Of a stretch of DNA of 64,000 nt, positions 14,924 to 39,866 are shown piece after piece. Origin of the DNA: an uncultured Acidobacteriota bacterium (GTDB taxonomy: Bacteria; Acidobacteriota; Terriglobia; Acidiferrales; UBA7541); assembly GCA_963804535.1 (NCBI GenBank), contig CAWDQT010000011.1, positions 26,011 to 90,010 on the forward strand. The letters run 5' to 3'. Every line of letters starts with the position of its first letter. Positions within the stretch are counted from its first letter, which is position 1. A program made the position numbers and the translations under genes. The notes under the pieces were generated by a model. It did not search any database, was not told the DNA's origin, and worked only from the letters and a program-made list of their open reading frames with translations.

Positions 14924-14989
14924 GAGCCATTCAGCCGGCGATTTTTCAAGGGCCCAGGGATTCTCTGACGCGCGTACCAGGAGAGGGTT

Positions 14990-15382
14990 ATGAAACGCAC
15001 ATTGGCAATCTTGTTGGGAGTTGTGACATTACTGACGGCGGGCAGCAGTCAGCTCCTCGCTCATCATGCTTTTTACTCGGTCTACGACCGCGAAAAAACT
15101 GTAAAGATCGAAGGAACGCTGAAAGAGTTCATCTGGCGCAATCCGCATTCTTTCGTCAGGGTGGAAGCCCCGGACGAAAAGGGAGATGTGCAGAGCTGGG
15201 TGATCGAATGGGCGGCGCCTGCGCAATTGACCGAGAAGGGCGTATCCAGTGCCACGCTTCGCCCTGGCGATAAGATCGTCATTACGGGCCACCCCGGGCG
15301 CGTCGCTGAAAACCATAGGCTCCAACTGATGAAGGTGGAGCGGCCGTCGGACGGCTTTAAGTGGGAAGGTAACATTCAGTAA
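14990..15382 (+). CDS. small secreted protein, DUF6152-like, copy 1 (predicted mature N-terminus His-His)
   Basis: 130 aa. Signal peptide ends 'SQLLA|HHAFYSVYD', with conserved 'W.NPH' ('WRNPHSF'), 'WVIEW' and 'LRPGDKIVITG'. Confidence 0.8.
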   Translation: MKRTLAILLGVVTLLTAGSSQLLAHHAFYSVYDREKTVKIEGTLKEFIWRNPHSFVRVEAPDEKGDVQSWVIEWAAPAQLTEKGVSSATLRPGDKIVITGHPGRVAENHRLQLMKVERPSDGFKWEGNIQ

Positions 15383-15445
15383 GCGGTCATTATTGCCCGA
15401 AAGTTAGAGATAAGAAAATGAAGACACTACTGCCCGAAAGCGCTC

Positions 15446-16320
15446 ATGCGAATTGGCCAGACGTTCCTGTTTGCAGCAGCCTTTGCACTCGTGCTGGCGG
15501 CTCATCTCGGCGCCCAGGATACGGATGCTGCGCCGCAGGTGCTGGGGCTCAAGGCGCAGTGAATCTCCAAATTGGGGCGGCCCGAACCCCGCGGGCAGCT
15601 TCGCCGCAGGATTTGACCGGCTATTGGGAATCGATCGTCACCGAGTATTGGCGCTACCGTATGGTGATTCCGGACAAAAGCGACTACGTCATCGTTCCCC
15701 TCAATGCCGAGGCACGTAAGATCGCGGACGCCTGGGATCCGGCCAAGGATAAGGCCGAAGGCAATGAATGCAAGGGCTACGGTGCCGCCGCGATCATGCA
15801 GGTTCCGGGCCGGCTGCACATTTATTGGCAGGACGACAATACGCTGCGAATCGATGCCGATTCTGGGACCCAGACGCGTCTGTTGCATTTCGGCGGTTCC
15901 GCACCAGCGAATGCCGCGGCTGACTGGCAGGGATATTCGGTAGCCTTGTGGGAGGGATACGAACCCGATAATCAGCGAAACGGCGGTGGCGGGCCAATAC
16001 GGGATCCCAGAGATCTCGCCAAGGTTGTGCCCAGAGAGGTGGGCGGGGTGGTCCCCGGATATCTCAAGGTTCTCACCACCCATATGCGTCCTGGGTATCT
16101 GCGAAAGAATGGCGTTCCTTATGGTGCGAACGCGACAGTCGAAGAATCTTTCGATCGCTTTTCCGATCCCTATTCTCATGAGAATTGGCTGGTAGTTACG
16201 ACCGTCGTAACGGATCCCCAATACCTCATGGAGCCTTACGTCACCCATGCACACTTCAAGAAGATTGCAGATGGGTCTGGATGGGATCCGACGCCATGCC
16301 GGAGCGATGAGCCCCGCTGA
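15446..16320 (+). CDS. secreted lipocalin-like family protein (divergent member), N-terminal frameshift as sequenced
   Basis: Signal peptide 'MRIGQTFLFAAAFALVLAAHLGA' from ATG 15446 is out of frame with body ORF 15418..16320 (indel(s) about 15540-15605). The body has 'DLTGYWES', a Cys pair and 'DPQYLMEPY'. Confidence 0.7.
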
Positions 16321-16375
16321 TTATTCTTTGAGGGTGCCGTTTTAAGGTTCGGTTTTTCGCAGTGAGGATGAGCCA

Positions 16376-17266
16376 ATGAGATTTGCAAACATCAGCAGCA
16401 GGAAAGTGAAGCGCCTCTGGTTCCCTGTGCTGCTGCTCTTGGTCTTACCGAGCCGGTCGCTCTGGGCGCAGGTCGATCTTACTGGTGAGTGGTCCCCGAG
16501 GATCTATAACGACGGCAGAGACATCGGCGACTACACGGGAATTCCACTGAATGAAGCGGGCCGGCTGAGAGCCGAGAGTTTTCACCCGGAACAGTTTGAT
16601 CTTCCGGAAAATATCTGCAGACCACACGCGTTCGATATTGGATTGCGCGTTGCTCCGGCGCAGCTCTATATCTCCACCGAACTGGATAATGCTACACAAC
16701 TGGTCGTTGACTATCACTTCCACGCGTACTGGTCCGATTTCAGGATTTGGATGGATGGCCGTCCGCACCCGCCCGAGTACGCAGCTCACAAGTTCTCGGG
16801 ATTCTCGACCGGGCATTGGGAAGGCAGCACGCTGGTATTCACAACCGACCATCTTAAGGAAGGGTTCATTACCCGCACGGGAGCGCCACTCACGGAAAAA
16901 GCTACCGTGACCACTCGCGTCAATCGCTACGGCAATGTTTTGACGATGGTTTTTATTATCAATGATCCAGCTTACTTGAGTGAGCCCTACATTCGGGAAT
17001 CCAGTTGGTACTACGATCCGAAGCAGGTGATTCCGGCGTTCCCCTGCGAGCCGTCTCCAGAAGGAACACTAATACCGGCGGGCCAAGTGCCCAGTTTTAT
17101 GCCGGGAAAAAACGACATTCTTACCGACTTCGCTAAGGAGTACGGAATACCTCCCGAAGCTGCGCTAGGCGGCGCGGAAACGACGCATCCCGACTACATC
17201 AAGAAAATGAAAGACATGAAGAAGCTGCCGCGCACCAGCACGAAGCATTTCATACGGCAGGGTTAA
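16376..17266 (+). CDS. secreted lipocalin-like family protein (divergent member)
   Basis: 296 aa with a signal peptide, 'VDLTGEW', 'FSGFSTGHWEGSTLVFTTDHL' and 'INDPAYLSEPY'. Confidence 0.8.
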   Translation: MRFANISSRKVKRLWFPVLLLLVLPSRSLWAQVDLTGEWSPRIYNDGRDIGDYTGIPLNEAGRLRAESFHPEQFDLPENICRPHAFDIGLRVAPAQLYISTELDNATQLVVDYHFHAYWSDFRIWMDGRPHPPEYAAHKFSGFSTGHWEGSTLVFTTDHLKEGFITRTGAPLTEKATVTTRVNRYGNVLTMVFIINDPAYLSEPYIRESSWYYDPKQVIPAFPCEPSPEGTLIPAGQVPSFMPGKNDILTDFAKEYGIPPEAALGGAETTHPDYIKKMKDMKKLPRTSTKHFIRQG

Positions 17267-23354: not shown

Positions 23355-23514
23355 TTTGGGGCCTCCAGATATGGAGACAGCCTGCACCCGGATGGAATAT
23401 GCGCATTGTACAGCACTCCTTGGCCGTCTGGTGGCAGTGAATCCTGTTCCATTCGCCGACGGCAATGCTGTACACTCTGCCTACTAGAACTCGCCTTGGA
23501 TGGAGGCAATCGCA

Positions 23515-23994
23515 ATGCGAAATCGGCATATTTTGCCAGTGGTTTTGACACTCGGCCTTTTGGTCGCGTCTGCTCCTCTATTCGCACATCACGCGAATGC
23601 CGTTTTTGATACGACGAAAACCGTTACCGTAAAAGGGGCAGTCACAGAATGGTTTTGGGCCAATCCGCATTGCCTTTTGAGGTTCGACGTAACAGACGAC
23701 TCTGGCCAGGTGGCGCATTGGGTCGGGGAGACTCAGGCTCCGATCAATATGATCGGAAACGGCTGGAGACGAGACTCGTTCAAGCCTGGGGATGAAATTA
23801 CCGTCAGTCTCCGGCCACTCCGGAACGGCAGGCCCGGCGGCAGCATTCAATCGGTCGTCCTTGCCGATGGTAAGACACTAAAGGCGGGAGCAGGAACCGA
23901 GTACGTCAAACCGGGCGGGCCGGCGCCCGACGGGGCTCAACCCGATGGAACTCGACCTGAGGGCACCAACCCCGAGGGGAACTCCAAGCCTTAA
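23515..23994 (+). CDS. small secreted protein, DUF6152-like, copy 2
   Basis: Signal peptide ends 'APLFA|HHANAVFD', with 'WANPHCL', 'WVGE' and 'FKPGDEITVS'. The C-terminal tail has four P(D/E)G pentapeptide repeats. Confidence 0.8.
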   Translation: MRNRHILPVVLTLGLLVASAPLFAHHANAVFDTTKTVTVKGAVTEWFWANPHCLLRFDVTDDSGQVAHWVGETQAPINMIGNGWRRDSFKPGDEITVSLRPLRNGRPGGSIQSVVLADGKTLKAGAGTEYVKPGGPAPDGAQPDGTRPEGTNPEGNSKP

Positions 23995-24074
23995 GAGCGC
24001 TCCGCGCGGCAGACTGTGCAAGTGTCGTAGCGTTACCTGAGCGCTTTTGGCGCGCAGCAAGCGAGAAGCGCAAA

Positions 24075-25031
24075 ATGCAAACGGAAAGGCATGTCGCGAT
24101 GTCAACCCGTTTAGGATCTCTCTCAATCACACGTGTGGCGGCATTCGTAATTGCGGCATTGGTCTTCGCGCCTCTCACCCATGCACAGACCGTGGTAATC
24201 CCTTTTACGCGGGAACCAGGAGCGGTCTATGACCCTGACGTTCCGAATGAGAAGCCGGGGCCTGCTCCACGCCGCGATTTGTCCGGCATTTGGGAGCCTG
24301 CCCGCTCGCTGGCGGACGACGTTGGGGCGGATGGGGCGAAAGCAATACCGGCGGATGGAAAGCCGGGCCACGAGCCGCCTTTTACCCCCGAAGGCCAGAA
24401 AGCATACATGGCCACCAAGCCGACCTTCGGCTACAGACAAGTCCCGCCTGTGCAAACAAACGATCCAATGCCTGGATGCGATCCCCAGGGGTTTCCGCGC
24501 GTCGCTCTGCATAACTTCCGAACGAGTTGGATCATCCAGAATCCGAGTAATGTGGTGATTCTGTATGAGTTCAACAAAAAGTGGCGGGTGATCTGGACCG
24601 ACGGGCGCGCGCTCCCCAAGAATGCCGAGGACCCGAGCTGGAGTTATATGCCGGATCTTTCGGAGTCAAGATGGTGGGGATACTCGGTGGGCAAATGGAT
24701 CGATGATTATACGTTTGAAGCCGAGTCGAACGGATTCAACGACAAGACCTGGCTCGATAACGCCGGCCGGCCCCACAGCACCGCTTTGCGCGTGATCGAA
24801 CGCTATCACCGCGTGGACGCAAAACACCTGGAAATGACCATCACAATCGATGACCCGAAGTATTACACGAAGCCCTGGGTCGCTTTGGACCGTTTGTCTT
24901 TGAGATTGCAATCACCCAGCTTCGATTTCTTTGAGCAGGAATGCTCGCCCTCTCAGACCAAGGAATATAACGAATTCTATGGCGAGCCCGCCTCCGAGAA
25001 TTTAGGCAAACCTCCCGACAAAGCCAAGTAG
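24075..25031 (+). CDS. secreted lipocalin-like family protein (short form)
   Basis: 318 aa with 'RRDLSGIWEP', 'FTPEGQ', 'PGCDPQGFP', 'WGYSVGKW', 'GFNDKTWLDNAGRPHSTALRVIERY' and 'DDPKYYTKPW'. Confidence 0.85.
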   Translation: MQTERHVAMSTRLGSLSITRVAAFVIAALVFAPLTHAQTVVIPFTREPGAVYDPDVPNEKPGPAPRRDLSGIWEPARSLADDVGADGAKAIPADGKPGHEPPFTPEGQKAYMATKPTFGYRQVPPVQTNDPMPGCDPQGFPRVALHNFRTSWIIQNPSNVVILYEFNKKWRVIWTDGRALPKNAEDPSWSYMPDLSESRWWGYSVGKWIDDYTFEAESNGFNDKTWLDNAGRPHSTALRVIERYHRVDAKHLEMTITIDDPKYYTKPWVALDRLSLRLQSPSFDFFEQECSPSQTKEYNEFYGEPASENLGKPPDKAK

Positions 25032-25143
25032 GTCTTGGACCCGCTCCCTGTGGATCAGACTGGTCTTAGCGGGTGAGCTTCTCTTGACCTCGACGACGGG
25101 CCGCAGTAGCATCCAGCGAAGCAGCATCCATAAGGTCGATTCA

Positions 25144-25950
25144 ATGCCACGCAAGAATGCGCATGCGTTCGGTTCTTTTCGTGAGCGGACTATCGGATTG
25201 ACCGCGCTCTTGATTGCGCTCGCGTCCGCGGTCTCCATGCGTGCGCAAGCGTCTGCCCCGGCCCAAACCGCAACAACAGAGCCTGCACTGCGCCCGCGCG
25301 ACCTTACAGGTCTATGGTTCGGCGGAGTCGGAGGAGGCTTGCGCGTGAAGGGGACGGTGGCTCCGCTGACGCCGGAGGGCCAGACCAGATTCAATGCCAA
25401 TACCGCGGAACTGAAGAGCGACCGTACCATCAGCGCCGATCCCACCTTTCGCTGCGAGCCGCCCGGCTTGCCGCATATCTACGGGATCGGCGGCTATTCG
25501 ATCGAATTCATGCAGACTCCGGCGCGGATCGTGATCTTCTACGAGTCGATACACACATTTCGCACCATCTGGATGGACGGCCGGAAGCCGCCGCAAGATG
25601 CCGATCCAATGTGGATGGGATTTTCCGTGGGACACTGGGACGGAAACGATCTGGTCGTGGATACAACCGGGTTCAACGACAAAACCTGGCTGAATGGAGC
25701 GGGATATCCACACAGTGAAGCGCTTCACATAATCGAGCGCTTCCATCGCGCCGACGTGAAGCACATGCAACTCGATATCACCATCGACGATCCAAAGTCG
25801 TACACGCAGCCTTGGCATATGGGAATCAATTTCACGCTTCAGCCGACATGGGAGTTTGGGGAATCTTTCTGTATTCCCACGAACCAGGAGAATTTCAAAT
25901 CGGAAATCATTGAGCAAAACGACAAGGACAAACCGGCCCCAAAGAAATAG
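25144..25950 (+). CDS. secreted lipocalin-like family protein (short form)
   Basis: 'RDLTGLW', 'LTPEGQ', 'FRCEPPGLP', 'MGFSVGHWDGNDLVVDTTGFNDKTWLNGAGYPHSEALHIIERF' and 'DDPKSYTQPW'. ATG 25144 is preferred (signal peptide). Confidence 0.85.
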   Translation: MPRKNAHAFGSFRERTIGLTALLIALASAVSMRAQASAPAQTATTEPALRPRDLTGLWFGGVGGGLRVKGTVAPLTPEGQTRFNANTAELKSDRTISADPTFRCEPPGLPHIYGIGGYSIEFMQTPARIVIFYESIHTFRTIWMDGRKPPQDADPMWMGFSVGHWDGNDLVVDTTGFNDKTWLNGAGYPHSEALHIIERFHRADVKHMQLDITIDDPKSYTQPWHMGINFTLQPTWEFGESFCIPTNQENFKSEIIEQNDKDKPAPKK

Positions 25951-25991
25951 TCGCTGGTAATTACTTGTTGCGCGCGAGGAGGTTCCGCGAA

Positions 25992-26420
25992 ATGCACTTC
26001 ACAACGAAGACCAGAGTTCTAGCCTGTTGCGCCGTAGCGGCGCTGGCCGCTATTGGCCCCAGGGCCGTCTTCGCCCATCACGGGTCGGCGGCATACGATA
26101 TGTCCAAATCGCTCACGCTCGATGGCACCGTAACGAGCCTGGACTGGAACAATCCGCATTGCCTGCTTCATTTCGACGCCAAGGATGAGAAAGGCGAAGT
26201 GCAGCACTGGACGATCGAACTTTACAATCCCCTGTGGATGACGCGCGCCGGATGGACACGAACCAGCCTGAAAGCCGGCGACCCGATCAACATCACCTTC
26301 CACGGAACCAAGAGCGGCGCGCCGAATGGCTACATTCGTGACGGCGACGGGAAACTGACCTCGAACGGTAAGGAACTCGCGTTTCATCAGGCCGGAGACG
26401 AGCGAACCACGGAACGCTAG
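25992..26420 (+). CDS. small secreted protein, DUF6152-like, copy 3
   Basis: RBS 'gaggagg'. Signal peptide ends 'PRAVFA|HHGSAAYD', with 'WNNPHCL', 'WTIEL' and 'LKAGDPINITF'. Confidence 0.8.
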   Translation: MHFTTKTRVLACCAVAALAAIGPRAVFAHHGSAAYDMSKSLTLDGTVTSLDWNNPHCLLHFDAKDEKGEVQHWTIELYNPLWMTRAGWTRTSLKAGDPINITFHGTKSGAPNGYIRDGDGKLTSNGKELAFHQAGDERTTER

Positions 26421-26487
26421 CGCCGTCCGCCTCCGTCGCGCTACGGATGGCGGCTAACGATTGAGAAACCTTCGAGGCGAGCGCGTC

Positions 26488-27609: not shown

Positions 27610-27627
27610 GTGGAAAGGAAGGTTGCC

Positions 27628-28701: not shown

Positions 28702-28770
28702 GCAAGTGCCGCTCATGCCGAAGAAATCGAGTTGAGCTGCCGGTCGATCGTTGAAGAAGGAGAGAACCAT

Positions 28771-29292
28771 ATGGCTAAGCGAAATCTGCCGTTGCTGCTC
28801 ATCTTTACTCTAGCTCTGCCGGTAATCTCACGCGCCCAGGCAATGCCAAACTTCTCCGGAAACTGGAAACTCGCCCAGATCGAGCCACCCGTCGATCCCC
28901 GAAACGGCCGCCCGCCGTCCGCCGGTGGTGGCCTGGGCGGAGGTGGAGACGCGGACAATGCCTATGGGGCGAGCATCCGCGAAATTTTTGCTCAAGCGCC
29001 GCAGACGATCATGATCACGCAGACAGCGAACCAAATCGCCGTACAAATTGGATCGGAAAAAGAGTCTTATACGCTGGATGACAAGCAAACGGTGACTCCG
29101 GCCGGCGATCCCAACGCCTTGAAGACTTGGGCGCACTGGGACGGAACGAAGCTGCACCTGCACTTCAAAAAAGGAATGAACTGGGGCAGGGACATCCTCA
29201 GCTTGAGCGATGGAAAACTCGTCGTGCTGCGCGATGTTGAATCGGGTGGCGGATCGACGACTTTTAGCATTACGTACTCCAAGACCGAGTGA
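28771..29292 (+). CDS. small secreted lipocalin-like protein (mini version of the expanded family)
   Basis: 173 aa with signal peptide 'LALPVISRAQA'. 'PNFSGNWKL' and 'AHWDGTKLHLHF' echo 'PNFSGIWEA' and 'GHWDGDTLVVDV' of the larger paralogues. Confidence 0.7.
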   Translation: MAKRNLPLLLIFTLALPVISRAQAMPNFSGNWKLAQIEPPVDPRNGRPPSAGGGLGGGGDADNAYGASIREIFAQAPQTIMITQTANQIAVQIGSEKESYTLDDKQTVTPAGDPNALKTWAHWDGTKLHLHFKKGMNWGRDILSLSDGKLVVLRDVESGGGSTTFSITYSKTE

Positions 29293-30201: not shown

Positions 30202-31136
30202 CGAGGTCGTCCGCACCGTCGCCCTGATGGGTACCTTTGTGACGATCCACGTCGTGGGCCATGTAGTGGGAGACATGGCCGGTCACAAAGGGGAGACGGA
30301 GAGGACTGAGCGCGAGCGAGCGGTCGACCGCGCGCTTGATTGGTTTTACAAAATTGAGGAATGTTGCACGCGATTCGAGTCCAGCAGCGAAGTGATGCGG
30401 CTCGCGACCCAGGTGGGCGTGCCCGTTCCAGTCAGCACGATCCTTTTCGAAGCGGTGCAATTCGCGTTGGCCGTAGCGGAAGCAACTGAAGGCGCGTTCG
30501 ATCCGACGGTCGGCTACGCCATGGAATCGCTCGGTTTCAATCGCGAATACCGCACCGGTCAAACGATCCGAACTCCTCTCGATTCCAATTTCCCTGTCAG
30601 CTACCGGGATGTTCGCCTCGACGCGGAAGGCCAGACGATCACCTTGCATCGTCCGCTGATTCTTGATCTTGGCGCCGTCGCGAAGGGGTTGGCGGTTGAT
30701 CTCGCCGCACGCGAGCTTCAATCGTTCAAAAATTTTGCGATCAACGCGGGTGGCGATCTCTATCTCGGAGGATGCAATCCCAGTGGCGAGCCATGGTCCG
30801 ATCGGAATCCGCCATCCGCGAAACGATGGGGAATTGATTGATTCGATCCGAGTCTCAAACCGCGCCGTCTGCACCTCAGGCGACTACGAAAAACGGGCGA
30901 ACGACGAGCAAGGCCATCATATTCTCGATCCGCGCACAGGATCGTCAGCCAACGCCGTGGCCAGCGTGACGGTTATCGCACTTACAGCGATGCTGGCCGA
31001 TGCGCTCGCAACGGCCGCTTTCGTTCTGGGTCCGTCTGATGGGATTCAACTATTCCATCGTTTGGGCGTGGATGGGCTGATCATTTCCCCGACCCTGGAA
31101 CTATATGCAACTCGAGGGTTCCGTGAGTACCACTAG
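30152..31136 (+). CDS. apbE: FAD:protein FMN transferase (ApbE), frameshifted as sequenced
   Basis: 'VALMGTFVTI', 'AFDPTVG' and 'LDLGAVAKGLAVD' in ORF 30152..30841. 'IGIRHPR...AVCTSGDYE...HILDPRTG' lies in ORF 30663..31136. They join at 'GEPWS|IGIRHP' if the extra C near 30799 is removed. Confidence 0.82.
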
Positions 31137-31944
31137 CTCTGCGATTTGGCGATTCTTTCAGACGCCCAAGGGTCTTCTCATCATCGTGCTGGTGATTCTG
31201 GTTGCGGTAGCCGCCCCGCACGAGGGGATCGCATTAGTAGCGCCCGGTCTCGCAACTGCGGTTTTGGTCGCTAGTGCGATCGACGTGCTGATTCTCCGAA
31301 AAATTCGAGGCGCCTGGGAATTTCCCAGTGGCGCAGTTCTCACGGGTCTGATTGTTGCAATGATATTGACTCCACAGGAGCCTTGGTACGTCACCGCTTG
31401 CACCTCGGCCATAGCGATTGCGAGTAAGTACGTCGCCCGGACTCGCTCGGCCAACATCTTTAATCCGGCCGCACTGGCTCTGGTTGCTACCTTTTACATT
31501 TTCAATACGGGACAGAGTTGGTGGGGCGCCTTGCCTGAAATTTCACCCTACGCTCTGATCGTGCTTGTGGCGACCGGCGCGTTCATCGCGGATCGCGTCA
31601 ACAAGATTCCCTTGGTTCTCGTTTTCCTGTTTACCTACTTTGGGCTATTTACGCTCACGAGCTTCGCCGGCGATCCGGGAAAGGTCGCCGAAATGTTTCG
31701 CGCGCCCGATCTCCACGCCGTGCTCTTCTTTGCGTTCTTCATCTTGACCGATCCGCCAACTTCGCCCGTGAGGTATCCCGATCAGATTGTGTGCGGAGTG
31801 CTTGTCGCCTTGGCCAGTTACGCGACCTTTGAGTGGGTGGGTGCGGCCCATTATCTTCTTGCGGGCGTTCTCGTCGGCAACATCTGGGAAGCTTGGCACC
31901 GCTCGCAATTTTTGCGCCGGCGCGTGCCGTCGCCGGCCACATAG
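31105..31944 (+). CDS. RnfD/NqrB-like polytopic membrane protein (short, without its own SGAT site)
   Basis: 279 aa with 'SGAVLTGLIVAMILTP', 'NIFNPAALALV' and 'FFILTDPPTSP', which resemble conserved RnfD/NqrB blocks. Confidence 0.65.
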   Translation: MQLEGSVSTTSSAIWRFFQTPKGLLIIVLVILVAVAAPHEGIALVAPGLATAVLVASAIDVLILRKIRGAWEFPSGAVLTGLIVAMILTPQEPWYVTACTSAIAIASKYVARTRSANIFNPAALALVATFYIFNTGQSWWGALPEISPYALIVLVATGAFIADRVNKIPLVLVFLFTYFGLFTLTSFAGDPGKVAEMFRAPDLHAVLFFAFFILTDPPTSPVRYPDQIVCGVLVALASYATFEWVGAAHYLLAGVLVGNIWEAWHRSQFLRRRVPSPAT

Positions 31945-31978: not shown

Positions 31979-32455
31979 CTACGAAAATCCGATCCAGCGC
32001 CCGCCGATTCCTACACCCGCCCACAGCAAGACCGAAACCACTGCCACTACTTTGCTCCAAACGGGGCTCACTCGAGTCTCGTCGGTCATGGTCACTTTGC
32101 GTTGGATTGTAAAAGTGAAGACGATCGCCAGAAACAGACACGACATCTTGAACCAAAAGGCGTCATGGTAATAACACTTGATCGCTTCGGAGAGGAAGAG
32201 CAGGCCACCCGTGATGATCATTAATACGAGGCTGCCGACGAGCCAGGGCTGCGCGTTGCGAGTGAGCTCTGCGGCGGACTGCCGCTTCAATCCAAGACCT
32301 AAGAGACGCATGTCCACAACCAACACCGCTCCCCCGATCACTCCCAGGCCAAGGAGGTGAATTGCCTCGATCACCGGAAATAACCAGGATGACTTTCGGA
32401 TCGTTTCGCCGATTCCCGAAGCTTCGCACCACTGAAAGAAGGCCAGCAGCGACAT
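31979..32455 (-). CDS. 4-TM membrane protein, function unknown (DUF6644/CopD-like?)
   Basis: ATG 32455 overlaps the upstream stop (TAATG). 'WLFPVIEAIHLLGLGVIGGAVLVVDMRLLG' is paralogous to the upstream gene. Confidence 0.7.
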   Translation of the reverse strand: MSLLAFFQWCEASGIGETIRKSSWLFPVIEAIHLLGLGVIGGAVLVVDMRLLGLGLKRQSAAELTRNAQPWLVGSLVLMIITGGLLFLSEAIKCYYHDAFWFKMSCLFLAIVFTFTIQRKVTMTDETRVSPVWSKVVAVVSVLLWAGVGIGGRWIGFS

Positions 32456-33120
32456 TAGTGTTCCGCCTGGGTTGGCACGCAACTGGTGAGGAAATTAACG
32501 ATCGCCGGTTGCGGCTGCCTATCGCAGTCGAACCAGTTATACGCGATCATTCTTCCCGAAAGAACGATGCAGACCCATAGCACCAGCGAAAGCGCGCCGG
32601 CAACTCTGGCTGCCTTGGGCGTTACATTATCCACATCCCACGTTGTCACCCGGCGATAAACGCCCGAATGAAAGATCCACACGTTCAGGCCCGCCAGCAA
32701 CAGCATGATCATTTTGGCGCGGAAGAAAATATTCTGATAGGAGCGCAGCGGTATGGCCGAAAACAGGAGCGTTCCACTGATGACCATGACGACGAATCCA
32801 ACTGCGGTCCAAGGCAGCAGGCGCCGGGCAACTTCGGATACGGGCACGCTCTTCATCGTCCAGCCGAGGAGGCGGAAATCGAACATCACGGCCAAGCCGA
32901 AGAATAGGCACAGCGCCCATACATGGACCGATTCGATCAGGTCGTAAGCATAGCGGGATTCGTGCAGGCCGGTGCTCCACGATGAATCGCCCATCCGTTG
33001 GAAGAAATCGAGAAGGGTCCCTCCGATCCCGCCGCCTCCTTCATTACTTTCGTTGGCAGCCGACTGCAATGATGCTGCGTCGAATGGGCCGCTCGCGAAA
33101 AATTGGCCAGGCGCGCCCAT
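32455..33120 (-). CDS. 4-TM membrane protein, paralogue of 31979..32455, function unknown
   Basis: 'YAYDLIESVHVWALCLFFGLAVMFDFRLLG'. It may extend to ATG 33272 (signal-like 'MKRVLIGLFCILTLALC') if an indel lies near 33120. Confidence 0.65.
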   Translation of the reverse strand: MGAPGQFFASGPFDAASLQSAANESNEGGGGIGGTLLDFFQRMGDSSWSTGLHESRYAYDLIESVHVWALCLFFGLAVMFDFRLLGWTMKSVPVSEVARRLLPWTAVGFVVMVISGTLLFSAIPLRSYQNIFFRAKMIMLLLAGLNVWIFHSGVYRRVTTWDVDNVTPKAARVAGALSLVLWVCIVLSGRMIAYNWFDCDRQPQPAIVNFLTSCVPTQAEH

Positions 33121-33403
33121 TTTTCGGAGCCAGGGTCCGGCGGAATCAAGTGGATGTGAACTGCCGCTTCACTCGACCTCTGTACTCTGTAGGCGGCTTG
33201 AGTAGGCGAGGTCACCAAATAGCAGAGAGCCAACGTCAAAATACAGAAGAGCCCGATCAGAACGCGCTTCATTTGGAAATTCGTTCTTATCCGATTTCAA
33301 GCATTGGGGATCCACTCATGCGCAATCCCGAGCGTAAACAAGGAAAAGGCTGCGCGGATCGGGTACGATCCGCGCGCCAATGCAAACGCGGGCGCCGCGT
33401 CCG

Positions 33404-33856
33404 TTATTTCTTGCTCTCCGGCGACAACTCGTATGGCGCGCCGGTTCCGGACGAGCCGAGGAACAGTTTTCGCCCATCAGGGAACGTAAGATCCCTGCCG
33501 TTGGCTCGGTGCGACCCGTCTTTCGCCTGGTATCCATCGACCACCACTTCGGTGCCGGGCAGCAGGGATTCCTTGGTGAACCCGCGCCGGAAAAGGACGT
33601 TCGGCGTGCCCGCTTCGACGGCCCAGTTCTCAACCGTGCCATCGGGCTTCTTCACGTCGACGTGCATCCAGGTGTGGGGATTTACCCATTCCATTTTCGT
33701 GATGGTCCCCTTGAAACTCACCGGTTTATTCGCGTCGAACTCCGCCGCAAACGCGTGGTGCGCCGAGACTGACGCCGCACCTCCCAGGATTGCGAAACCC
33801 ACGACGGCGACTACCGTTGCAATTTTCGTTCGCATCGACTTCAGCCTCCTCCGCAT
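33404..33856 (-). CDS. small secreted protein, DUF6152-like, copy 4
   Basis: Signal peptide ends 'AASVSA|HHAFAAEFD', with 'WVNPHTW', 'WAVEA' and 'LLPGTEVVVDG'. Confidence 0.8.
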   Translation of the reverse strand: MRRRLKSMRTKIATVVAVVGFAILGGAASVSAHHAFAAEFDANKPVSFKGTITKMEWVNPHTWMHVDVKKPDGTVENWAVEAGTPNVLFRRGFTKESLLPGTEVVVDGYQAKDGSHRANGRDLTFPDGRKLFLGSSGTGAPYELSPESKK

Positions 33857-33924
33857 GTAGAACCAAAATGAACCGGGCCCGCGGCGGCTCGACTATCCCG
33901 AATCAGGATAAGCGGCGTCCGCCC

Positions 33925-34911
33925 CTATTGCTTACCGCCGTACCACTCATAGAACTTATCACCGGACGGCACCTTGCGGGTGATATCGACCGCCATGGTT
34001 TCGCCTTCCCAGTGCTTCACCAACTGCTGCTTGCGAAGACCTCCGTACATGAACTCTTCGACGAATTCATTGCAGCGAAACTCGAGAAGCTGCATGTTCG
34101 GTTCCACGCGGCGATAGAGCGGCATGGCGATCCGCCAGGGCCGCGTAAAAACCTTCGGGTCTTCGATCGTCACTTCGTAACGAATGATATCAGGCGACAT
34201 CAGCGTGAAGCGCTCGGTAAGGTGCAGCGCGTCGCTATGGAAATTGCCGGCGCGGTCAAACCAGCTGCGGTCGTTGAAATTTGTGACGTCGACGACGAGC
34301 GTGTCTCCATCCCAATGTCCGACGGAGTGGCCCATCCAGGTGTCATCGGGCGGCCCTGCGACCTTGTCCAAATGGATCGTGCGCGCCGTATTCGAGAATT
34401 CGTAGGCCATGTGAATCTTGTTCGTGCCTTGCGTGATCTGGAAGGGATAAGGCATGTACATCGCGCGCGGAATGCCCGGCAGGTAACACTTCAGTTCCGG
34501 GTCGCGGTCAATCCAATGTTCCGCGTTGTCTTTCTTCATCAGCAAAGCTTCCGGCTTGTAGGGGATTTGCCCGTCGCCCTGCACCACGCCGAGCGATCCG
34601 GGTACCGCGCCCGCGGCGCCCAGCGCGAGAACCGGAGCTGCGGGCACTCGCGCGTAGTCGTAAGGATAAACGCCCGGCTGCGTGACTGCGGCGGGAAGCG
34701 CCGCATGCGCCTGCAAATCCCAGTTGGCCTCGTTATTGGCTTCCCAGATGCCGCTGAAGTTAGGCTTGCCGCCGACGCGGGCTGGCCGCGCCGCGGGAGC
34801 GGCCGGAGCCTGAGCCGACGTGCGCGTGATGGACACGGAGACGATCGCGCCGACTGCAGCCGCGGCAATGGCGACCGTTATCATCGAACCTGAGAATCGG
34901 CCGCGCATCAT
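33925..34911 (-). CDS. secreted lipocalin-like family protein (short form)
   Basis: 328 aa with 'KPNFSGIWEA', 'LKCYLPGIPR', 'MGHSVGHWDGDTLVVDVTNFNDRSWFDRAGNFHSDALHLTERF' and 'EDPKVFTRPW'. Confidence 0.88.
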   Translation of the reverse strand: MMRGRFSGSMITVAIAAAAVGAIVSVSITRTSAQAPAAPAARPARVGGKPNFSGIWEANNEANWDLQAHAALPAAVTQPGVYPYDYARVPAAPVLALGAAGAVPGSLGVVQGDGQIPYKPEALLMKKDNAEHWIDRDPELKCYLPGIPRAMYMPYPFQITQGTNKIHMAYEFSNTARTIHLDKVAGPPDDTWMGHSVGHWDGDTLVVDVTNFNDRSWFDRAGNFHSDALHLTERFTLMSPDIIRYEVTIEDPKVFTRPWRIAMPLYRRVEPNMQLLEFRCNEFVEEFMYGGLRKQQLVKHWEGETMAVDITRKVPSGDKFYEWYGGKQ

Positions 34912-34935
34912 GTCCTCCTCTTGCTCCTGTCGTCG

Positions 34936-36171
34936 CTACTGCAACGGATCGTCTTCGACGCCCACAAAATCCGTGGCGTTGTCGCTTATTCCCGGGTCGG
35001 GACCTTGTCCCTCCGCAAAGGCGGCCTCTGCCATGCGCTGTCCGCGCATCAAGCCCGGGGAAGCATAGTTTCCTTCGATGCAGCGAGGCTCGTAATAAAT
35101 TCGGTTCTCCTGCTCGCTCTGCCTGGTGAACTCCTGCTTGACGGTCCATGGCCGCGTCCACACGGTCGGATCTTCGATCGTGACCACGTATTCGAGCGTG
35201 TTCGGCCCGGTGCGCGTCCAGCGCTCCACCAGGTGCAGGTTTTCCCGCGAACCCTGGTAATCGGTCTTTGGACTGAAGTTCGTCACGTCGATGACCAGCG
35301 TGTTGCCTTCCCAGTGACCGCGCGAATCGCCATACCACTGGCGGATATTGGCCGGCAAGTGCGGGCTTCCGTTCATAACGATATTTCGCTGCCAGCCTTG
35401 TCCCTGACCGACGTCGTAGAACATCGAGATGCCGCCGGGCGTCTGCACAATGCGGCGGAAGCTGCCGGTCGCGCCTCCGAATTCGGGCAGCCCGCCGGTC
35501 AGGCAGCGGTCCGGCAACGCGCCATCCTCCGGATTATCACGGCGATTCATGCGCGCCGTGTTGTAGCGGGGAGGAGGCTCGGCAAATCGCGGCGAGGGCG
35601 TCGGATCGTATTTCCCGCCGGCACATGCCACCGACTTGTTCTTGCAAGTCTGCGTCGCTTGCAGCAGTGCGAGACGAAATTCCCGCTCGGCGGCGGCCAT
35701 CTTCTGTGCCTCCGGCGTGAGCGGCGGGATTCGGCCGTTGGGCGGATCCACAATCAGCGACGTCCGCGCACCGGTGTGCTTGACGGACATAAACTGCGCG
35801 TTATAGGCGCCGGCGACGTCGAGCTCGGTGCCGCGCTCCACACGCCTGTCCCGGCCGAGCAGCGCCGCTCGTTCTTTGTCCAATTCGGCCCGCTGCGCTT
35901 CGGTGAAAAATTCCTGGTTCGCATACTTGGGAGAGCGCTGCAACGGCGTGTCCGATTCGTCGGTCCAGATGCCTTGCAGATCCGGTTCACCCCACGGCGT
36001 TTTCAGCGCTGGAGCTGTCGCCGACGACTTCGCTGAAGCAGTGTGCGCCGTTGCGGAAGCCGTTTGAGTCTGCGCCGACGTACGCGTGATGGATACGGAA
36101 ATGATCGCGCCGGCCGCAGCCGCGGCAATGGCGAGAGTTATCATGGAGCGTGAAAACCGGTCGCGCATCAT
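34936..36171 (-). CDS. secreted lipocalin-like family protein (long form), tandem copy 2
   Basis: Start ATGATG 36171 after 'aggagg'. 'LKTPWGEPDLQGIW', 'YGDSRGHWEGNTLVIDVTNFSPKTDYQGSRENLHLVERW' and 'EDPTVWTRPW'. It ends 'SDNATDFVGVEDDPLQ'. Confidence 0.88.
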   Translation of the reverse strand: MMRDRFSRSMITLAIAAAAAGAIISVSITRTSAQTQTASATAHTASAKSSATAPALKTPWGEPDLQGIWTDESDTPLQRSPKYANQEFFTEAQRAELDKERAALLGRDRRVERGTELDVAGAYNAQFMSVKHTGARTSLIVDPPNGRIPPLTPEAQKMAAAEREFRLALLQATQTCKNKSVACAGGKYDPTPSPRFAEPPPRYNTARMNRRDNPEDGALPDRCLTGGLPEFGGATGSFRRIVQTPGGISMFYDVGQGQGWQRNIVMNGSPHLPANIRQWYGDSRGHWEGNTLVIDVTNFSPKTDYQGSRENLHLVERWTRTGPNTLEYVVTIEDPTVWTRPWTVKQEFTRQSEQENRIYYEPRCIEGNYASPGLMRGQRMAEAAFAEGQGPDPGISDNATDFVGVEDDPLQ

Positions 36172-36196
36172 CTCCTCCTGAATCTTCCGCGATGCC

Positions 36197-37402
36197 TCAC
36201 TGCAACGGATCGTCTTCAACGCCGACAAAGTCCGTGGCATTGTCACTTAACGCCGGATCAGGACCTTTCCCCTGCGCAAAGGCGCGGTCTGCCATACGCG
36301 CTGACAGCATCAGCGAGGGGAGAGCATAGTTTCCTTCGACGCAGCGCGGCTCGTAATAAATTTTGTTTTCCTGCTCGCTCTGCTTGGTGAACTCTTGCTT
36401 GACGGTCCACGGCCGCGTCCACACGGTCGGATCTTCGACGGTGACCACGTATTCGAGCGTGGTTGGCCCCTTTCGCGTCCAGCGTTCGACCAGATGCAGG
36501 TTCTCGCGCGAGCCCCGAAAGTCCGTTTTCGGGCTGAAGTTCGAAACGTCGATCACGAGCGTATTGCCTTCCCAATGGCCGCGCGAATCGCCAAACCACT
36601 GGCGGATGCTCGGCGGCAAGTGCGGGCTTCCATTCATGACGATGTTTCGCTGCCAGCCTTGCCCCTGGCCGACATCGTAGAACATCGCGATGCCGCCCGG
36701 CGTCTGCACGATTCGGCGGAAGCTCCCACCGTAGGCTGTTCCAAATTCGGGCAACCCGCCGGTCAGGCAACGGTCCGGCAACGCTCCGTCCTCCGGCCCA
36801 TCGTGGCGATTCATGCGTGCCGTGTTGTAGCGAGCGGGAAGCTCGGCGCGGCGCGTCGAAGGCGTGGGATCGTATTTGCCGCCTTCACAGGCCACCGACT
36901 TGTTCTTGCAGGTTTCGGTAGATTGCAGCAAGGCGAGACGTAACGCCCGGTCCGCAGCGGCAATCTTCTGCGCCTCCGGCGTCAGCGGCGGAATCCGGCC
37001 GTTCGGCGGATCGACAATCAGCGACGTGCGCACGCCCGTGCGCTTGATGGACATAAACGCCGCATTATACGCGCCGGCGACGTCGAGCTCTGTGCCGCGC
37101 TCCACGCGCTTATCGCGCCCGAGCAGCGCCGCTCGCTCTTTATCCAATTCGGCCCGTTGCGCCTCGGTGAAAAATTCCTGGTTCGCATACTTGGCGGGAC
37201 GCTGTAAGGGAGTGTCGGATTCGTCCATCCAAATGCCCTGCAGATCCGGTTCGCCCCACGGCGTTTTCAGCGTTGGGGCTGCCGCCGTCGCGGAAGCCGT
37301 CGGACCCTCTTGCGCGACCGTCACCTGCGCCGGTTTCAAAAACACGAGTGCCGACATGATCGCGGCCAGCGCCACGATGGACTTTAAGAGCCGAGTGCGC
37401 AT
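36197..37402 (-). CDS. secreted lipocalin-like family protein (long form), tandem copy 1
   Basis: 401 aa, roughly 85% identical by eye to 34936..36171, with the same C-terminus 'SDNATDFVGVEDDPLQ'. Confidence 0.88.
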   Translation of the reverse strand: MRTRLLKSIVALAAIMSALVFLKPAQVTVAQEGPTASATAAAPTLKTPWGEPDLQGIWMDESDTPLQRPAKYANQEFFTEAQRAELDKERAALLGRDKRVERGTELDVAGAYNAAFMSIKRTGVRTSLIVDPPNGRIPPLTPEAQKIAAADRALRLALLQSTETCKNKSVACEGGKYDPTPSTRRAELPARYNTARMNRHDGPEDGALPDRCLTGGLPEFGTAYGGSFRRIVQTPGGIAMFYDVGQGQGWQRNIVMNGSPHLPPSIRQWFGDSRGHWEGNTLVIDVSNFSPKTDFRGSRENLHLVERWTRKGPTTLEYVVTVEDPTVWTRPWTVKQEFTKQSEQENKIYYEPRCVEGNYALPSLMLSARMADRAFAQGKGPDPALSDNATDFVGVEDDPLQ

Positions 37403-37586
37403 TTGAGACCTCCCGCTAAACCCAAACGGAGGGGTATTCGAAGACCAGTGCGGTTCGAAACCGCCAGATGTGCGCCATTATCTTCAAGGATCGCGTCACT
37501 GTCCAGAAGATTGAGCGCGCGTGGTTGACGCGACGCTCTTACCTCGCTAACTTATGCGCCGATTACCACAGCAGGAGACCCCGAAT

Positions 37587-38561
37587 ATGCGAATCGGATT
37601 TAACCGCCCGACTGCTTTGATTGCCAGCGCCGCGATTGCCGCCGTGTTTTCTTTGGCTGCCATCCGAATGACCGGCCAGGCGGCCCGCACGACTCAGGCG
37701 ACTCGGCCAGCGCAGGCGACGCGCGCGGCGCGGACTCCTGACGGCCATCCCAACTTGAACGGCATCTGGCAGGCGACTACGACGGCGAATTGGGACCTGC
37801 TGGCTCATACGATGCGTCCGGCCGTCGCGCAGCCCGGTGTATATCCCGATGTGCCCGTGCTGGCCGCTCCAGTTCTGGCGCTCGGCGCGGACGGCGGCGT
37901 TCCGCCCGGCCCCGGCGTCGTGGAAGGCAACGAGATCCCGTACAAGCCCGAAGCCGCGGCGAAAAAGAAAGACAACGCCGAACACTGGCTGGATCGCGAT
38001 CCTGAAGTCCGCTGCTATACGCCCGGAATTCCCCGGGCCATGTACATGCCCTATCCGTTCCGGATCACGCAGGGCACGAACAAAATCGAAATGTCATTCG
38101 AGTTTGCAGGCGCCAGCCGCACCATTCACCTCGATCCTGTTGATCCGCCGCCCGCCGATACCTGGATGGGCCATTCGGTTGGCCACTGGGAAGGCAACAC
38201 GCTGGTCGTCGATGTGAGCCACTTCAACGATCGCACCTGGTTTTCGCGCTCCGGCGATTTCCATAGCGACGCGCTGCACGTCGTCGAGCGCTTTACGCCA
38301 ATTACCCCCGACGCGCTGCGCTACGAGGTCACGATTGAGGATCCGAACGTCTTTACCCGCCCGTGGAAGATGAGCATGGTCCTCTACCGTCAGCTCGAAG
38401 CCAACGCGCAGTTGATGGAATACAAATGCGTTGAGCTGGCGGAGGAAACCTTCCTGGGTCATCTGCGCAAGAAGCAACTCGTGAAGCACTGGGAGGGCGA
38501 CACCATCGTGATCGACGTCACCCGCAAAATCCCGCCGGGCGACAAACTTTACGAACGTTGA
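37587..38561 (+). CDS. secreted lipocalin-like family protein (short form), close paralogue of 33925..34911
   Basis: RBS 'aggaga' before ATG 37587. 'HPNLNGIWQA', 'MGHSVGHWEGNTLVVDVSHFNDRTWFSRSGDFHSDALHVVERF' and 'EDPNVFTRPW'. Confidence 0.88.
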   Translation: MRIGFNRPTALIASAAIAAVFSLAAIRMTGQAARTTQATRPAQATRAARTPDGHPNLNGIWQATTTANWDLLAHTMRPAVAQPGVYPDVPVLAAPVLALGADGGVPPGPGVVEGNEIPYKPEAAAKKKDNAEHWLDRDPEVRCYTPGIPRAMYMPYPFRITQGTNKIEMSFEFAGASRTIHLDPVDPPPADTWMGHSVGHWEGNTLVVDVSHFNDRTWFSRSGDFHSDALHVVERFTPITPDALRYEVTIEDPNVFTRPWKMSMVLYRQLEANAQLMEYKCVELAEETFLGHLRKKQLVKHWEGDTIVIDVTRKIPPGDKLYER

Positions 38562-38651: not shown

Positions 38652-39866
38652 CTATTGGTCGCCACCGCCGCCGGTCGCATTATCTTCCAGCGCGGGATCA
38701 GGCCCCTCGCCCTCGGCAAACGCCTTCTCCGCCGCTCGCGTGTTGGCGAGCATCCCAAGCAGCCCGTAATTGCCCTCGTGGCACCCGCCTTCGTACACCA
38801 TATTCGGTTTGTCGGCGTTCTTCCGCAGCTCCTGCACAAACGTGAAAGGCTTGACCCAAGTCGTCGGGTCCTCAGCGGTTGTAGTGATCTGCAGCGTTTT
38901 GGCATCGATGCGCTTGTAGCGCTCGGTCAAGTGGAGGTTTTCGCGCGAGCCGCGGAACTCGGTCTCCTGGCTGAAATTCGTGACGTCAACCACCAGCGTA
39001 TCGCCTTCCCATCGCCCGATCGAATCGCCCCAGTATTGGTGAATGTTCTTGGGCAGATGCTGCCGGCCCGTGATGGGGATTGGGCGATTGAAGCCCGTGC
39101 CCTGCCCGATGTCGTAATAGATGTCGACGGAATCAGGGCTCTCGACGATGCGCAACACGCCGCCGAAATTGCCGTAGGGCCGGCCATCCGGCGTCAAAAT
39201 TCCTGCCGGGAGAATCACAGGAAGTCCATTGAGCAGACAGCGCTCGACGCTGCTGCGGTCCTCAGGACCATCCGAGCGATTCATGCGCTCGAGGTTGTAG
39301 TCAGGCGGAGGCGCGTTTCGCAGCGGAGAAATCGGTCCAGGCTTGCCACCCGACGTGCCTTGCAGGAGCGCCTCGAGGTACTCACGCCTCTTGGTGATTC
39401 GCGCCTGCGCTTCCGGAGTGTAGGCAGGCATTTTGCCATCGGGCGGATCGATAATCATCGACGTGCGGCGGCCTACTTCCGTCGGCTTATCGCCGAACCA
39501 GTGCTCGTTGTAAGCGCGCGCGACGTCCTTTTCCGTGCCGCGAATGTCCTTGCCGTTGCTTTCGCGGCTGTCTCGGCCCGGGAGCGCGTCGCGCCTGAGC
39601 AGTTCATCTTCGGCTTTCTGATGCTCGGCCTCGGTCATGAACTCCCGATTGCCAAACTGTGCCGGGCGCTGGAATGGGACGACCGTCGTATTACTCCACG
39701 TGCCTTGCAGGTCCGGAGCGCCCCACGGGGTTTTTAAAGTGGCTGCAGCCGATGAAGTATTCGAAGCCGTTTGGCCGATAACTTTCGTGCTCGTCAAGCC
39801 AACGGCAATTAGTATCGCGGCGCTCAGTGCGATTGCCAACAAATGCGAACGAGCTCGAATTCTCAC
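38652..39866 (-). CDS. secreted lipocalin-like family protein (long form), divergent copy
   Basis: 404 aa with 'LKTPWGAPDLQGTW', 'WGDSIGRWEGDTLVVDVTNFSQETEFRGSRENLHLTERY' and 'EDPTTWVKPF'. Confidence 0.85.
   Translation of the reverse strand: MRIRARSHLLAIALSAAILIAVGLTSTKVIGQTASNTSSAAATLKTPWGAPDLQGTWSNTTVVPFQRPAQFGNREFMTEAEHQKAEDELLRRDALPGRDSRESNGKDIRGTEKDVARAYNEHWFGDKPTEVGRRTSMIIDPPDGKMPAYTPEAQARITKRREYLEALLQGTSGGKPGPISPLRNAPPPDYNLERMNRSDGPEDRSSVERCLLNGLPVILPAGILTPDGRPYGNFGGVLRIVESPDSVDIYYDIGQGTGFNRPIPITGRQHLPKNIHQYWGDSIGRWEGDTLVVDVTNFSQETEFRGSRENLHLTERYKRIDAKTLQITTTAEDPTTWVKPFTFVQELRKNADKPNMVYEGGCHEGNYGLLGMLANTRAAEKAFAEGEGPDPALEDNATGGGGDQ

Follow-up and report, generated by a model that had tools for sequence, protein, structure and literature searches.

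DUF6152 and a two-part DUF6644 membrane unit form a conserved cell-envelope module with a possible role in metal and electron handling

The DNA analysed here, called the window, is a stretch of 64,000 nucleotides from an uncultured Acidobacteriota bacterium of the Acidiferrales (GenBank assembly GCA_963804535.1, contig CAWDQT010000011.1, positions 26,011 to 90,010). At its centre of interest lie six minus-strand genes, lettered A (37402-36197) to F (32455-31979). They encode three secreted proteins of a group that we name the LS family (the long and short secreted proteins A, B, C and their relatives), one secreted DUF6152 protein (D) and two DUF6644 membrane proteins (E and F). The original prediction, drawn from the letters of the DNA, described a six-gene cluster with a CopC/CopD-like arrangement that suggested metal delivery or uptake. 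Comparison of the predicted proteins with their relatives now shows a conserved module made of the two-part DUF6644 unit and one DUF6152 subtype, usually with LS genes; the cluster probably handles a metal and electrons rather than serving plain copper uptake. Neither DUF6152 nor DUF6644 is mentioned in the literature searched.

Gene Cluster and Its Repair

The cluster and the genes directly upstream of it are laid out as follows.

36197..37402, minus strand: gene A, long-form LS protein of 401 residues; open reading frame (ORF) with no Pfam match
34936..36171, minus strand: gene B, long-form LS protein of 411 residues; 81% identical to A; LS hidden Markov model (HMM) E = 1e-150
33925..34911, minus strand: gene C, short-form LS protein of 328 residues; 27% identical to A
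33404..33856, minus strand: gene D, DUF6152 (PF19649), secreted protein with a predicted OB-fold; 113 bits, E = 7e-33
32455..33272, minus strand: gene E, first DUF6644 half (PF20349), 272 residues after base repair; 48.6 bits, E = 1e-12
31979..32455, minus strand: gene F, second DUF6644 half (PF20349), 158 residues, four predicted transmembrane helices; 99.4 bits, E = 3e-28
37554..38561, plus strand: further short-form LS paralogue, divergent from A; LS HMM E = 2e-118, 29% identical to A
38652..39866, minus strand: further long-form LS paralogue; 50% identical to A, LS HMM E = 4e-129

The Pfam gathering cut-offs are 27 bits for DUF6644, 27 bits for DUF6152, 26.5 for cytochrome c' (PF01322) and 34.1 for DUF2214. 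All six minus-strand ORFs first described are present, and so are the gaps of 25, 24 and 68 nucleotides between the first four genes and the TAATG overlap of E and F; the distance between D and E had been passed over. Two more LS paralogues directly upstream (37554-38561, plus strand; 38652-39866, minus strand) mean that the cluster does not end at six genes.

Gene E is longer than it first appeared. The ORF at 33120-32455, originally taken as the full gene, is frameshifted: relative to its orthologues, one base is missing after 33088 (33087-33088, minus strand). Restoring this base yields a 272-residue ORF from ATG 33272 (33272-32455), identical to the L004 orthologue at 251 of 272 positions. 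The first DUF6644 gene is continuous in the related loci L004, L008, L010, L021, L024, L017, L009, L013, L012 and L022, and continuous orthologues start about 150 nucleotides further upstream, with a signal-peptide-like segment. The D-E gap measures 283 nucleotides as the ORFs read, and, aligned with nine relatives, this stretch has the conserved pattern of coding sequence; since E really begins at 33272, the true gap is 131 nucleotides. A regulatory RNA in the 283-nucleotide gap was considered and dropped, as the Rfam search came back empty and the gap is the frameshift-broken 5' part of E. Directly 3' of the D stop codon, at 33386-33404, lies a GC-rich hairpin (ACGCGGCGCCCGCGT, minus strand) with a weak T-run only, which may act as an attenuator or partial terminator between D and E.

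Repaired E is predicted to carry a signal peptide, a periplasmic extension of about 65 residues and four transmembrane helices. The extension is conserved and contains the motifs (V/Q)-I-H-(L/M)-I and W-A-R. A similar break affects the ApbE gene 2 kb away (30152-31136), which is split into overlapping plus-strand ORFs (30152-30841 and 30663-31136) and is a single gene of 332 residues in the close relative L001. Because ApbE and E are both broken and ApbE is intact in a close relative, the assembly appears prone to insertion and deletion errors; both breaks are probably assembly errors, with pseudogenes as the alternative. For gene B, the frame is open up to GTG 36246, and the ATG at 36171 fits the relatives (410 residues in L001).

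Two-Part DUF6644 Membrane Unit

E and F are true paralogues, as had been proposed, with 31% identity over 161 residues (E = 4e-23) and Pfam DUF6644 matches in both. Residue conservation was scored in 54 diverse DUF6644 members with a mean column identity of 36%, in which H33, G83 and K103 (F numbering) are invariant. The motif first reported for the two proteins exists, with its glycine at His+9 (H-8x-G-5x-D) rather than His+7. The histidine of transmembrane helix 1 (TM1), described as invariant and placed at the helix start, is indeed invariant throughout the 54 sequences and sits about nine residues into the helix. E-type and F-type halves share E-x-x-H in TM1, R-L-x-G after TM1, F-x-x-K at the start of TM3 and a C-terminal G-R. 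In each half, the near-invariant Glu of E-x-x-H stands ahead of the invariant TM1 histidine, and the Asp of D-x-R-L-L-G is invariant in the E-type only.

Three independent lines bear on topology. Loops 1-2 and 3-4 hold 3.6 basic residues on average, versus 1.1-1.3 elsewhere, and this concentration places the N-terminus outside. The signal peptide of E supports periplasmic N- and C-termini, and the C-terminal cytochrome c carried by some relatives, which must be periplasmic, supports a periplasmic C-terminus. From these lines we infer that the N-termini, C-termini, conserved His and conserved Lys of E and F are on the periplasmic side; with periplasmic N-termini, the conserved His and Lys would lie in the outer half of the membrane.

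Homologous loci were collected in a genome scan with one genome per species, which returned 80 loci 53-95% identical to F; the query was a narrower DUF6644 alignment, so these loci cover relatives at least 53% identical to F. They span several Acidobacteriota classes and the Alphaproteobacteria, and the closest relatives are metagenome-assembled genomes of Acidobacteriota and Candidatus Acidoferrales. Four plasmid loci beyond the 80 were added, three from Sphingomonads and one from Sinorhizobium meliloti. Gene counts in the loci and in the window were made with HMMs built for this analysis. The DUF6644 genes form a tandem pair in 78 of the 80 loci, and single-chain fusions of both halves exist, such as P0245. 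These comparisons show E and F as the two halves of one predicted inner-membrane unit of 4+4 transmembrane helices.

The pair matches only DUF6644, whose function is uncharacterised, so no known role unrelated to the proposed one emerged. Secondary Pfam matches among the 54 members are led by DUF2214 (17/54, best E = 5e-7). Weak matches follow to CopD (PF05425; 3/54, best E = 1.8e-3), UPF0093/HemJ (PF03653; 3/54, best E = 0.026), DUF2269 (2/54), the copper chaperone PpoB2 (1/54, E = 2.8e-4) and Ferric_reduct (once, E = 0.014). CopD, UPF0093/HemJ, DUF2214 and DUF2269 presumably belong to one Pfam clan. Prokaryotic cytochrome b561 (PF01292), with four haem-ligand histidines across its four transmembrane helices where DUF6644 keeps one invariant His, is absent from the 25 families listed for these 54 relatives. 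E and F themselves show no CopD match at E <= 0.1 in Pfam and no UPF0093/HemJ match. An hhalign comparison of DUF6644 with a three-sequence YebZ/CopD/PcoD profile is not significant (E = 0.14, probability 0.4%); this non-significant alignment pairs H33 of F with the conserved histidine of the CopD helix H-L-x-x-A-x-x-W-x-G. Sequence and profile searches of the Protein Data Bank (PDB) with DUF6644, DUF6152 and LS returned nothing better than E = 0.3.

Secreted His-His Protein

Gene D encodes a DUF6152 protein, a family in which H33, H34, N59-P60-H61, W78 and E81 are invariant; the His-His pair occurs in 81 of 81 DUF6152 genes of the scored loci. A cleavage site of the A-x-A type lies directly before His-His in 12 of 12 aligned sequences, with D cut between VSA and HHAF. 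Because the predicted site directly precedes His-His, mature D should begin with histidine (His33-His34). Candidate histidine-brace ligands are H33, H34, H61 and E81, all invariant. A 2025 study reports that metal binding can be predicted, across folds, from a histidine that immediately follows the signal peptide, and describes N-terminal-His metal-binding domains coupled to membrane permeases (PMC12537917). DUF6152 is unmentioned in that paper and its supplements.

An AlphaFold2 model of D, built from a 53-sequence alignment, reaches a mean predicted local distance difference test (pLDDT) score of 80.7, with values above 90 for residues 41-130. Its layout, beta1-3/alpha/beta4-5, is that of an oligonucleotide/oligosaccharide-binding (OB) fold. 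The best Foldseek matches are all OB-folds (SSB, PriB and LysRS OB domains), with target-normalised template-modelling scores mostly between 0.4 and 0.67 for the single-domain matches. Since all of these best matches are OB-folds, a CopC fold, which is a beta-sandwich, is ruled out for D; nor does D match Pfam CopC (PF04234).

Conserved Linkage across Genomes

The genome scan ties D to the membrane pair. In 69 of the 80 loci a DUF6152 gene stands no more than 3 kb from the DUF6644 pair, at a median distance of 108 bp, and in 67 an LS gene lies within 5 kb. DUF6152 stands co-directional upstream of the pair in 32 cases, convergent downstream in 27, co-directional downstream in seven and divergent upstream in three; linkage kept through four arrangements suggests function rather than inheritance. 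Together with its recurrence in cultured Sphingomonadales, this supplies the association in other genomes that the original prediction looked for. Pairing is also specific to a subtype: HHAF(A/G/S)AEFD accounts for 60 of the 61 DUF6152 genes within 1.5 kb of a pair, D included, and other DUF6152 subtypes are not adjacent to it.

Plasmids of Sphingobium sp. TomTYG65, Novosphingobium sp. KACC 22771 and Novosphingobium sp. PP1Y carry the same gene set at about 30% identity. At the TomTYG65 and KACC 22771 loci (L168 and L170) the pair comes right after a TonB-dependent receptor gene, in the order TonB-dependent receptor, DUF6644, DUF6644, then a convergent DUF6152-LS-DUF6152-LS run. Their surroundings hold genes for an alkanesulfonate monooxygenase, tauD, a sulfonate-binding protein, rhodanese, peroxiredoxin and cytochrome c. 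This organosulfur context was set aside as a clue to mechanism, since such genes are not among the recurrent Acidobacteriota neighbours.

A DUF6152-like gene beside a single DUF6644 gene is also found on a large plasmid in several S. meliloti strains. In ml46 (pSymA, L169:7298-8459) no LS gene lies near these two. The DUF6152-like protein has a signal peptide followed by HHGW and later WGNPH, with an insertion. SM11, Rm41 and RU11/001 have near-identical copies of the ml46 locus, and GR4 has one of about 91% identity; no such pair turned up for strain 1021.

Association with Class II Cytochrome c

A fourth component accompanies the module in about a third of lineages. The representative protein P0355 joins two DUF6644 halves to a C-terminal CESCH domain that matches Pfam cytochrome c'. 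Scanning metagenomes with P0355 as query gave 44 loci that carry an in-frame fusion of DUF6644 to a class II cytochrome c domain with a CxxCH motif, and 15 of these hold both halves and the cytochrome in one chain. Scores of the cytochrome domain against PF01322 range from 25 to 27 bits around a cut-off of 26.5. Among loci of 4 kb or more with a DUF6644-cytochrome c unit, 18 of 26 also contain DUF6152, and five loci show the single-strand order DUF6152, DUF6644, DUF6644-cytochrome c, LS. In the genome scan, a class II cytochrome c gene occurs in 24 of 79 loci and within 1 kb of the pair in 13, always with CxxCH.

Stand-alone class II cytochromes c, about 70% identical to the fused domain, were also seen in metagenome loci with no DUF6644 in the stretch (L128, L129, L139, L142, L149-L158, L161 and others); because such copies occur in many metagenome loci, the cytochrome is also an independent protein. 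Recurrent fusion and adjacency suggest that the membrane pair moves electrons, something that plain metal delivery does not predict. The metal delivery or uptake first proposed fits the N-terminal His-His of D, and the cytochrome fusions and adjacency point beyond it to electron transfer.

LS Family

A, B and C match nothing in Pfam, NCBIfam or the PDB by sequence or profile, and no Pfam lipocalin match was obtained. The family shares the block GHW(E/D)G-TLVVDVTNF and two invariant Cys, seen in C, that probably form a disulfide. Invariant residues comprise these two Cys, two Arg, Glu, Asp, Gly and Pro; the LS alignment holds no conserved His or Met and no invariant free Cys. Every LS paralogue has a lipocalin-style G-x-W motif after the signal peptide. 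An AlphaFold2 model of the long form, built from 10 sequences, has a mean pLDDT of 44, with an eight-strand beta core between residues 227 and 342. The top Foldseek matches for this core are all calycins (FABP/UnaG, avidins and lipocalins), at E values of about 1e-2 and target-normalised template-modelling scores of 0.4-0.5 for a low-confidence model. As modelled, LS proteins are probably calycin-like barrels. A secreted protein of 186 residues at 28732-29292 (plus strand), with an LS-like P-N-F-S-G-x-W start and no Pfam match, may be a minimal barrel of the LS kind.

The three families are concentrated in abundant soil bacteria. DUF6644 comprises about 4000 clusters at 50% identity, DUF6152 at least about 8000 and LS at least 8000, both at 90% identity.

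Other Copies and Neighbouring Genes

The window contains four DUF6152 and nine LS genes in total; the DUF6644 pair occurs in one copy only. D is surrounded by five LS genes (A, B, C, 37554-38561 and 38652-39866), and the other three DUF6152 copies were found with the purpose-built HMM. The repeated unit is DUF6152 plus LS genes, and the six genes A to F are no fixed unit. The remaining copies lie in two modules and, with a promoter match, complete the list of features.

23500..26420, plus strand: module without the membrane pair; DUF6152 23500-23994, LS 24075-25031, LS 25084-25950, DUF6152 25965-26420; HMM E-values 6e-45 to 4e-73
14990..17266, plus strand: module without the membrane pair; DUF6152 14990-15379, divergent LS-like genes 15418-16320 and 16376-17266; HMM E = 3e-33, 8e-15 and 5e-23
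37477..37505, minus strand: sigma-70-like promoter match upstream of A, 10 of 12 hexamer positions

The LS-like gene at 15418-16320 matches 25084-25950 in BLASTP at E = 6e-8. The promoter match upstream of A is not significant, with two such sites in the region versus 1.4 expected by chance. The DUF6152/LS modules (13919-17266 and 23500-28701, plus strand) adjoin genes for a metallo-beta-lactamase fold (13919-14923), Amidohydro_2 (26461-27609) and an NHL-repeat propeller (27610-28701); a second NHL propeller lies at 19324-20370 on the minus strand.

Plus-strand genes for an FMN_bind protein, ApbE and a short RnfD/NqrB-like membrane protein of 279 residues (29353-31944), together a small flavin-based set, converge on F. 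As part of the system they were rejected: the arrangement is kept in only five of 79 loci, all close relatives, and reflects synteny. Other neighbours recur at variable positions and are not core, namely metallo-beta-lactamase in 11 loci, the NHL propeller in 10-11 of 80, and TonB-dependent receptors or CarboxypepD_reg-type outer-membrane barrels in 12 of 80. A pyrroloquinoline quinone (PQQ)-dependent dehydrogenase with a cytochrome c domain, sometimes with DUF3089, lies within 10 kb of the pair in 16 of 80 loci, again at variable position (for example L083:5832-8861). Among the neighbours examined there is no copA, cusCBA, multicopper oxidase or metal regulator, and there are no haem-uptake, haem-degradation or Ccm genes.

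Comparison with Known Systems

The logic of the cluster resembles CopC/CopD, YcnI/YcnJ and anglerase-permease fusions; it departs from them in its folds, its split membrane unit, its cytochrome and its LS partners. As in CopC/CopD (PcoC/PcoD; Escherichia coli YobA/YebZ) and Bacillus subtilis YcnI/YcnJ, a secreted protein with histidine as its first residue is encoded beside a polytopic protein with a transmembrane histidine, and E and F, like CopD, total eight transmembrane helices. Unlike the beta-sandwich of CopC and YcnI, D is predicted to be an OB-fold, and the secreted His protein beside E and F is a DUF6152 protein, unlike those in the reference copC-copD and pcoC-pcoD pairs. The membrane unit, in contrast to CopD, is split between two genes that have no CopD Pfam match, and the cytochrome c fusions and LS partners have no counterpart in CopCD, nor do copper genes lie nearby. 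The CopC/CopD parallel first drawn therefore survives in the His-His start, the TM1 histidine and the weak CopD matches of relatives, and fails on the CopC fold, the copper genes and a significant CopD profile.

Periplasmic OB-folds offer another comparison. D resembles CusF and CcmE, the latter an OB-fold haem chaperone, in being a small periplasmic OB-fold protein with likely ligand residues partly on a flexible end. Those ligands are Met and Trp in CusF and a C-terminal His in CcmE, from which D differs, and neither protein is among the 50 best Foldseek matches of D. Membrane haem-b electron donors with periplasmic partners are known in MsrQ/MsrP, FoxB and YceJ/YceI; in E. coli, the lipocalin-like YceI is paired with the cytochrome b561 homologue YceJ. 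The present genes share with these systems a small His-bearing helical membrane protein encoded with secreted partners, with YceI a partner that is probably a calycin-like barrel, and with FoxB a TonB-dependent receptor beside the genes in some plasmids. MsrQ, FoxB and YceJ carry two to four His ligands per chain, whereas DUF6644 has one invariant His per half, and no sequence relation of DUF6644 to the three was detected.

HemJ is reported to be a dimeric membrane protein with b-type haem (PMC13564367). E and F are like HemJ/PgdH2 (UPF0093, protoporphyrinogen oxidase) in being small helical membrane proteins with a conserved TM1 histidine; they themselves have no significant similarity to HemJ, which is a homo-oligomer of haem biosynthesis, whereas E and F appear to be an obligate hetero-pair linked to secreted proteins. 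DUF2214 (PF09980, a predicted membrane protein) is the best secondary match of DUF6644 relatives and scores about 19 bits in two fused ones, under its cut-off of 34.1; being itself uncharacterised, it adds no function. The anglerases Ang-1 and Ang-2 likewise expose a histidine by signal-peptide removal, bind Cu or Ni with it and are coupled to a membrane protein (PMC12537917). They are immunoglobulin-like and fused to HupE/UreJ; D is a predicted OB-fold encoded by a separate gene and associated with another membrane family.

Proposed Function and Its Alternatives

We tentatively favour a reading in which D, E and F form a conserved cell-envelope core, A, B and C are periplasmic partners, and the whole is a redox module with a metal-binding D. 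In this scheme, the N-terminal histidine of D would coordinate a transition metal, much as in a histidine brace. E and F together would hold a redox cofactor, most likely b-type haem ligated by the two TM1 histidines. Haem b is the simplest reading; the dimeric haem-b protein HemJ is weakly matched by a few DUF6644 members, and the single invariant His in each half, the obligate pairing and the cytochrome c fusions bear on haem b indirectly. Electrons would pass through E/F between the membrane and periplasmic partners, namely D in nearly all lineages and the class II cytochrome c, fused or adjacent, in about a third. The LS calycin-like barrels would bind a substrate or ligand for the metal centre to act upon.

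Several observations weigh against this redox scheme. No class II cytochrome c lies near the cluster in the window, the closest relatives of the cluster also have none nearby, and about two thirds of loci have none within 10 kb. The conserved histidines could bind a metal ion instead of haem, the likeness to HemJ is a weak match in 3 of 54 members, and the best secondary match, DUF2214, is uncharacterised. The N-terminal arm of D, which carries the His-His pair, is modelled at a pLDDT of only about 60, and the calycin assignment of LS comes from the pLDDT-44 model with Foldseek E values near 1e-2. Of the four DUF6152 genes in the window, three belong to the two modules without the membrane pair, so that dependence on the pair would be in trans or optional.

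The closest rival, possible though doubtful in our judgement, is metal trafficking akin to CopC/CopD or the anglerase-permease proteins: D would capture a metal, likeliest copper, and exchange it with E/F as a permease or membrane chaperone, and the system would import the metal or load periplasmic proteins such as the LS family. It draws on the invariant His-His right after the predicted signal-peptide cut, on the weak CopD (3/54) and PpoB2 (1/54) matches of DUF6644 members, on the pairing of H33 of F with the conserved CopD histidine in hhalign and on the TonB-dependent receptor gene that immediately precedes the pair on two Sphingomonad plasmids. Precedents are YcnI/YcnJ, the E. coli yobA-yebZ-yebY operon and the N-terminal-His domains fused to HupE/UreJ permeases (PMC12537917). 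Against it stand the OB-fold of D in place of a CopC fold, the non-significant CopD alignment (E = 0.14), the lack of any copper-homeostasis gene among the neighbours examined and LS proteins without invariant His, Met or free Cys. The cytochrome c fusions, unexpected for a plain permease, also speak against it; reductive metal uptake would merge this explanation with the redox scheme.

The calycin matches of the LS core, all to small-ligand binders, invite a further explanation, which we consider unlikely: the system handles haem, another tetrapyrrole or a hydrophobic ligand. LS proteins would carry the ligand, D would be a His-based chaperone acting on an OB-fold as CcmE does for haem, HemJ-like E/F would bind or process the ligand, and outer-membrane receptors would supply it in some lineages. 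The G-x-W motif of every LS paralogue, the weak UPF0093/HemJ matches of some DUF6644 members and the outer-membrane receptors and barrels, present in 12 of 80 loci and beside the pair in Sphingomonads, agree with this. The LS fold assignment is of low confidence, however; the neighbours examined hold no genes for haem uptake, haem degradation or Ccm; the histidines of D are N-terminal rather than C-terminal as in CcmE; and the subtype-specific pairing of D with E/F is explained no better than by the other accounts. That the genes form no functional unit and stand together only through a region rich in paralogues of abundant families is very improbable and already disfavoured. Four DUF6152 and nine LS genes in the window do raise chance proximity above the usual, the membrane pair is found in only one of three modules, and the neighbouring RnfD/ApbE/FMN_bind genes illustrate synteny without broad conservation (5/79 loci). 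Against coincidence stand the short median distance (108 bp in 69 of 80 species), with linkage kept through four rearrangements and across Acidobacteriota classes and Alphaproteobacteria, the single DUF6152 subtype that adjoins the pair, the recurrence of the set at about 30% identity in cultured Sphingomonadales and the single-strand gene runs with all families.

Beyond the tentative redox scheme lies a more speculative extension, which we regard as rather doubtful: a hitherto undescribed class of periplasmic metallo-redox enzymes with an OB-fold His-His metal centre that is catalytic or accepts electrons, wired through haem b by DUF6644 with its weak CopD- and HemJ-like features, served by the large LS family as substrate presenters and expanded by amplification of DUF6152 with LS. 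If this were true, E/F would wire D to the respiratory chain, with a class II cytochrome c in some lineages, and the cluster would represent a new enzyme class instead of a metal-trafficking device, its DUF6152-plus-LS unit being widely amplified in soil Acidobacteriota and Alphaproteobacteria.

Implications

The analysis joins DUF6152, DUF6644 and LS into one system and adds class II cytochrome c as a fourth component. It yields predictions for topology and ligand residues that can be tested, and cultured hosts open to genetics are at hand in Novosphingobium sp. PP1Y, Novosphingobium sp. KACC 22771, Sphingobium sp. TomTYG65 and several S. meliloti strains. Should the redox reading hold, the module would be a new way to power a periplasmic metal centre, and it would offer an initial functional lead for DUF6644 and for related membrane families that are uncharacterised, such as DUF2214.

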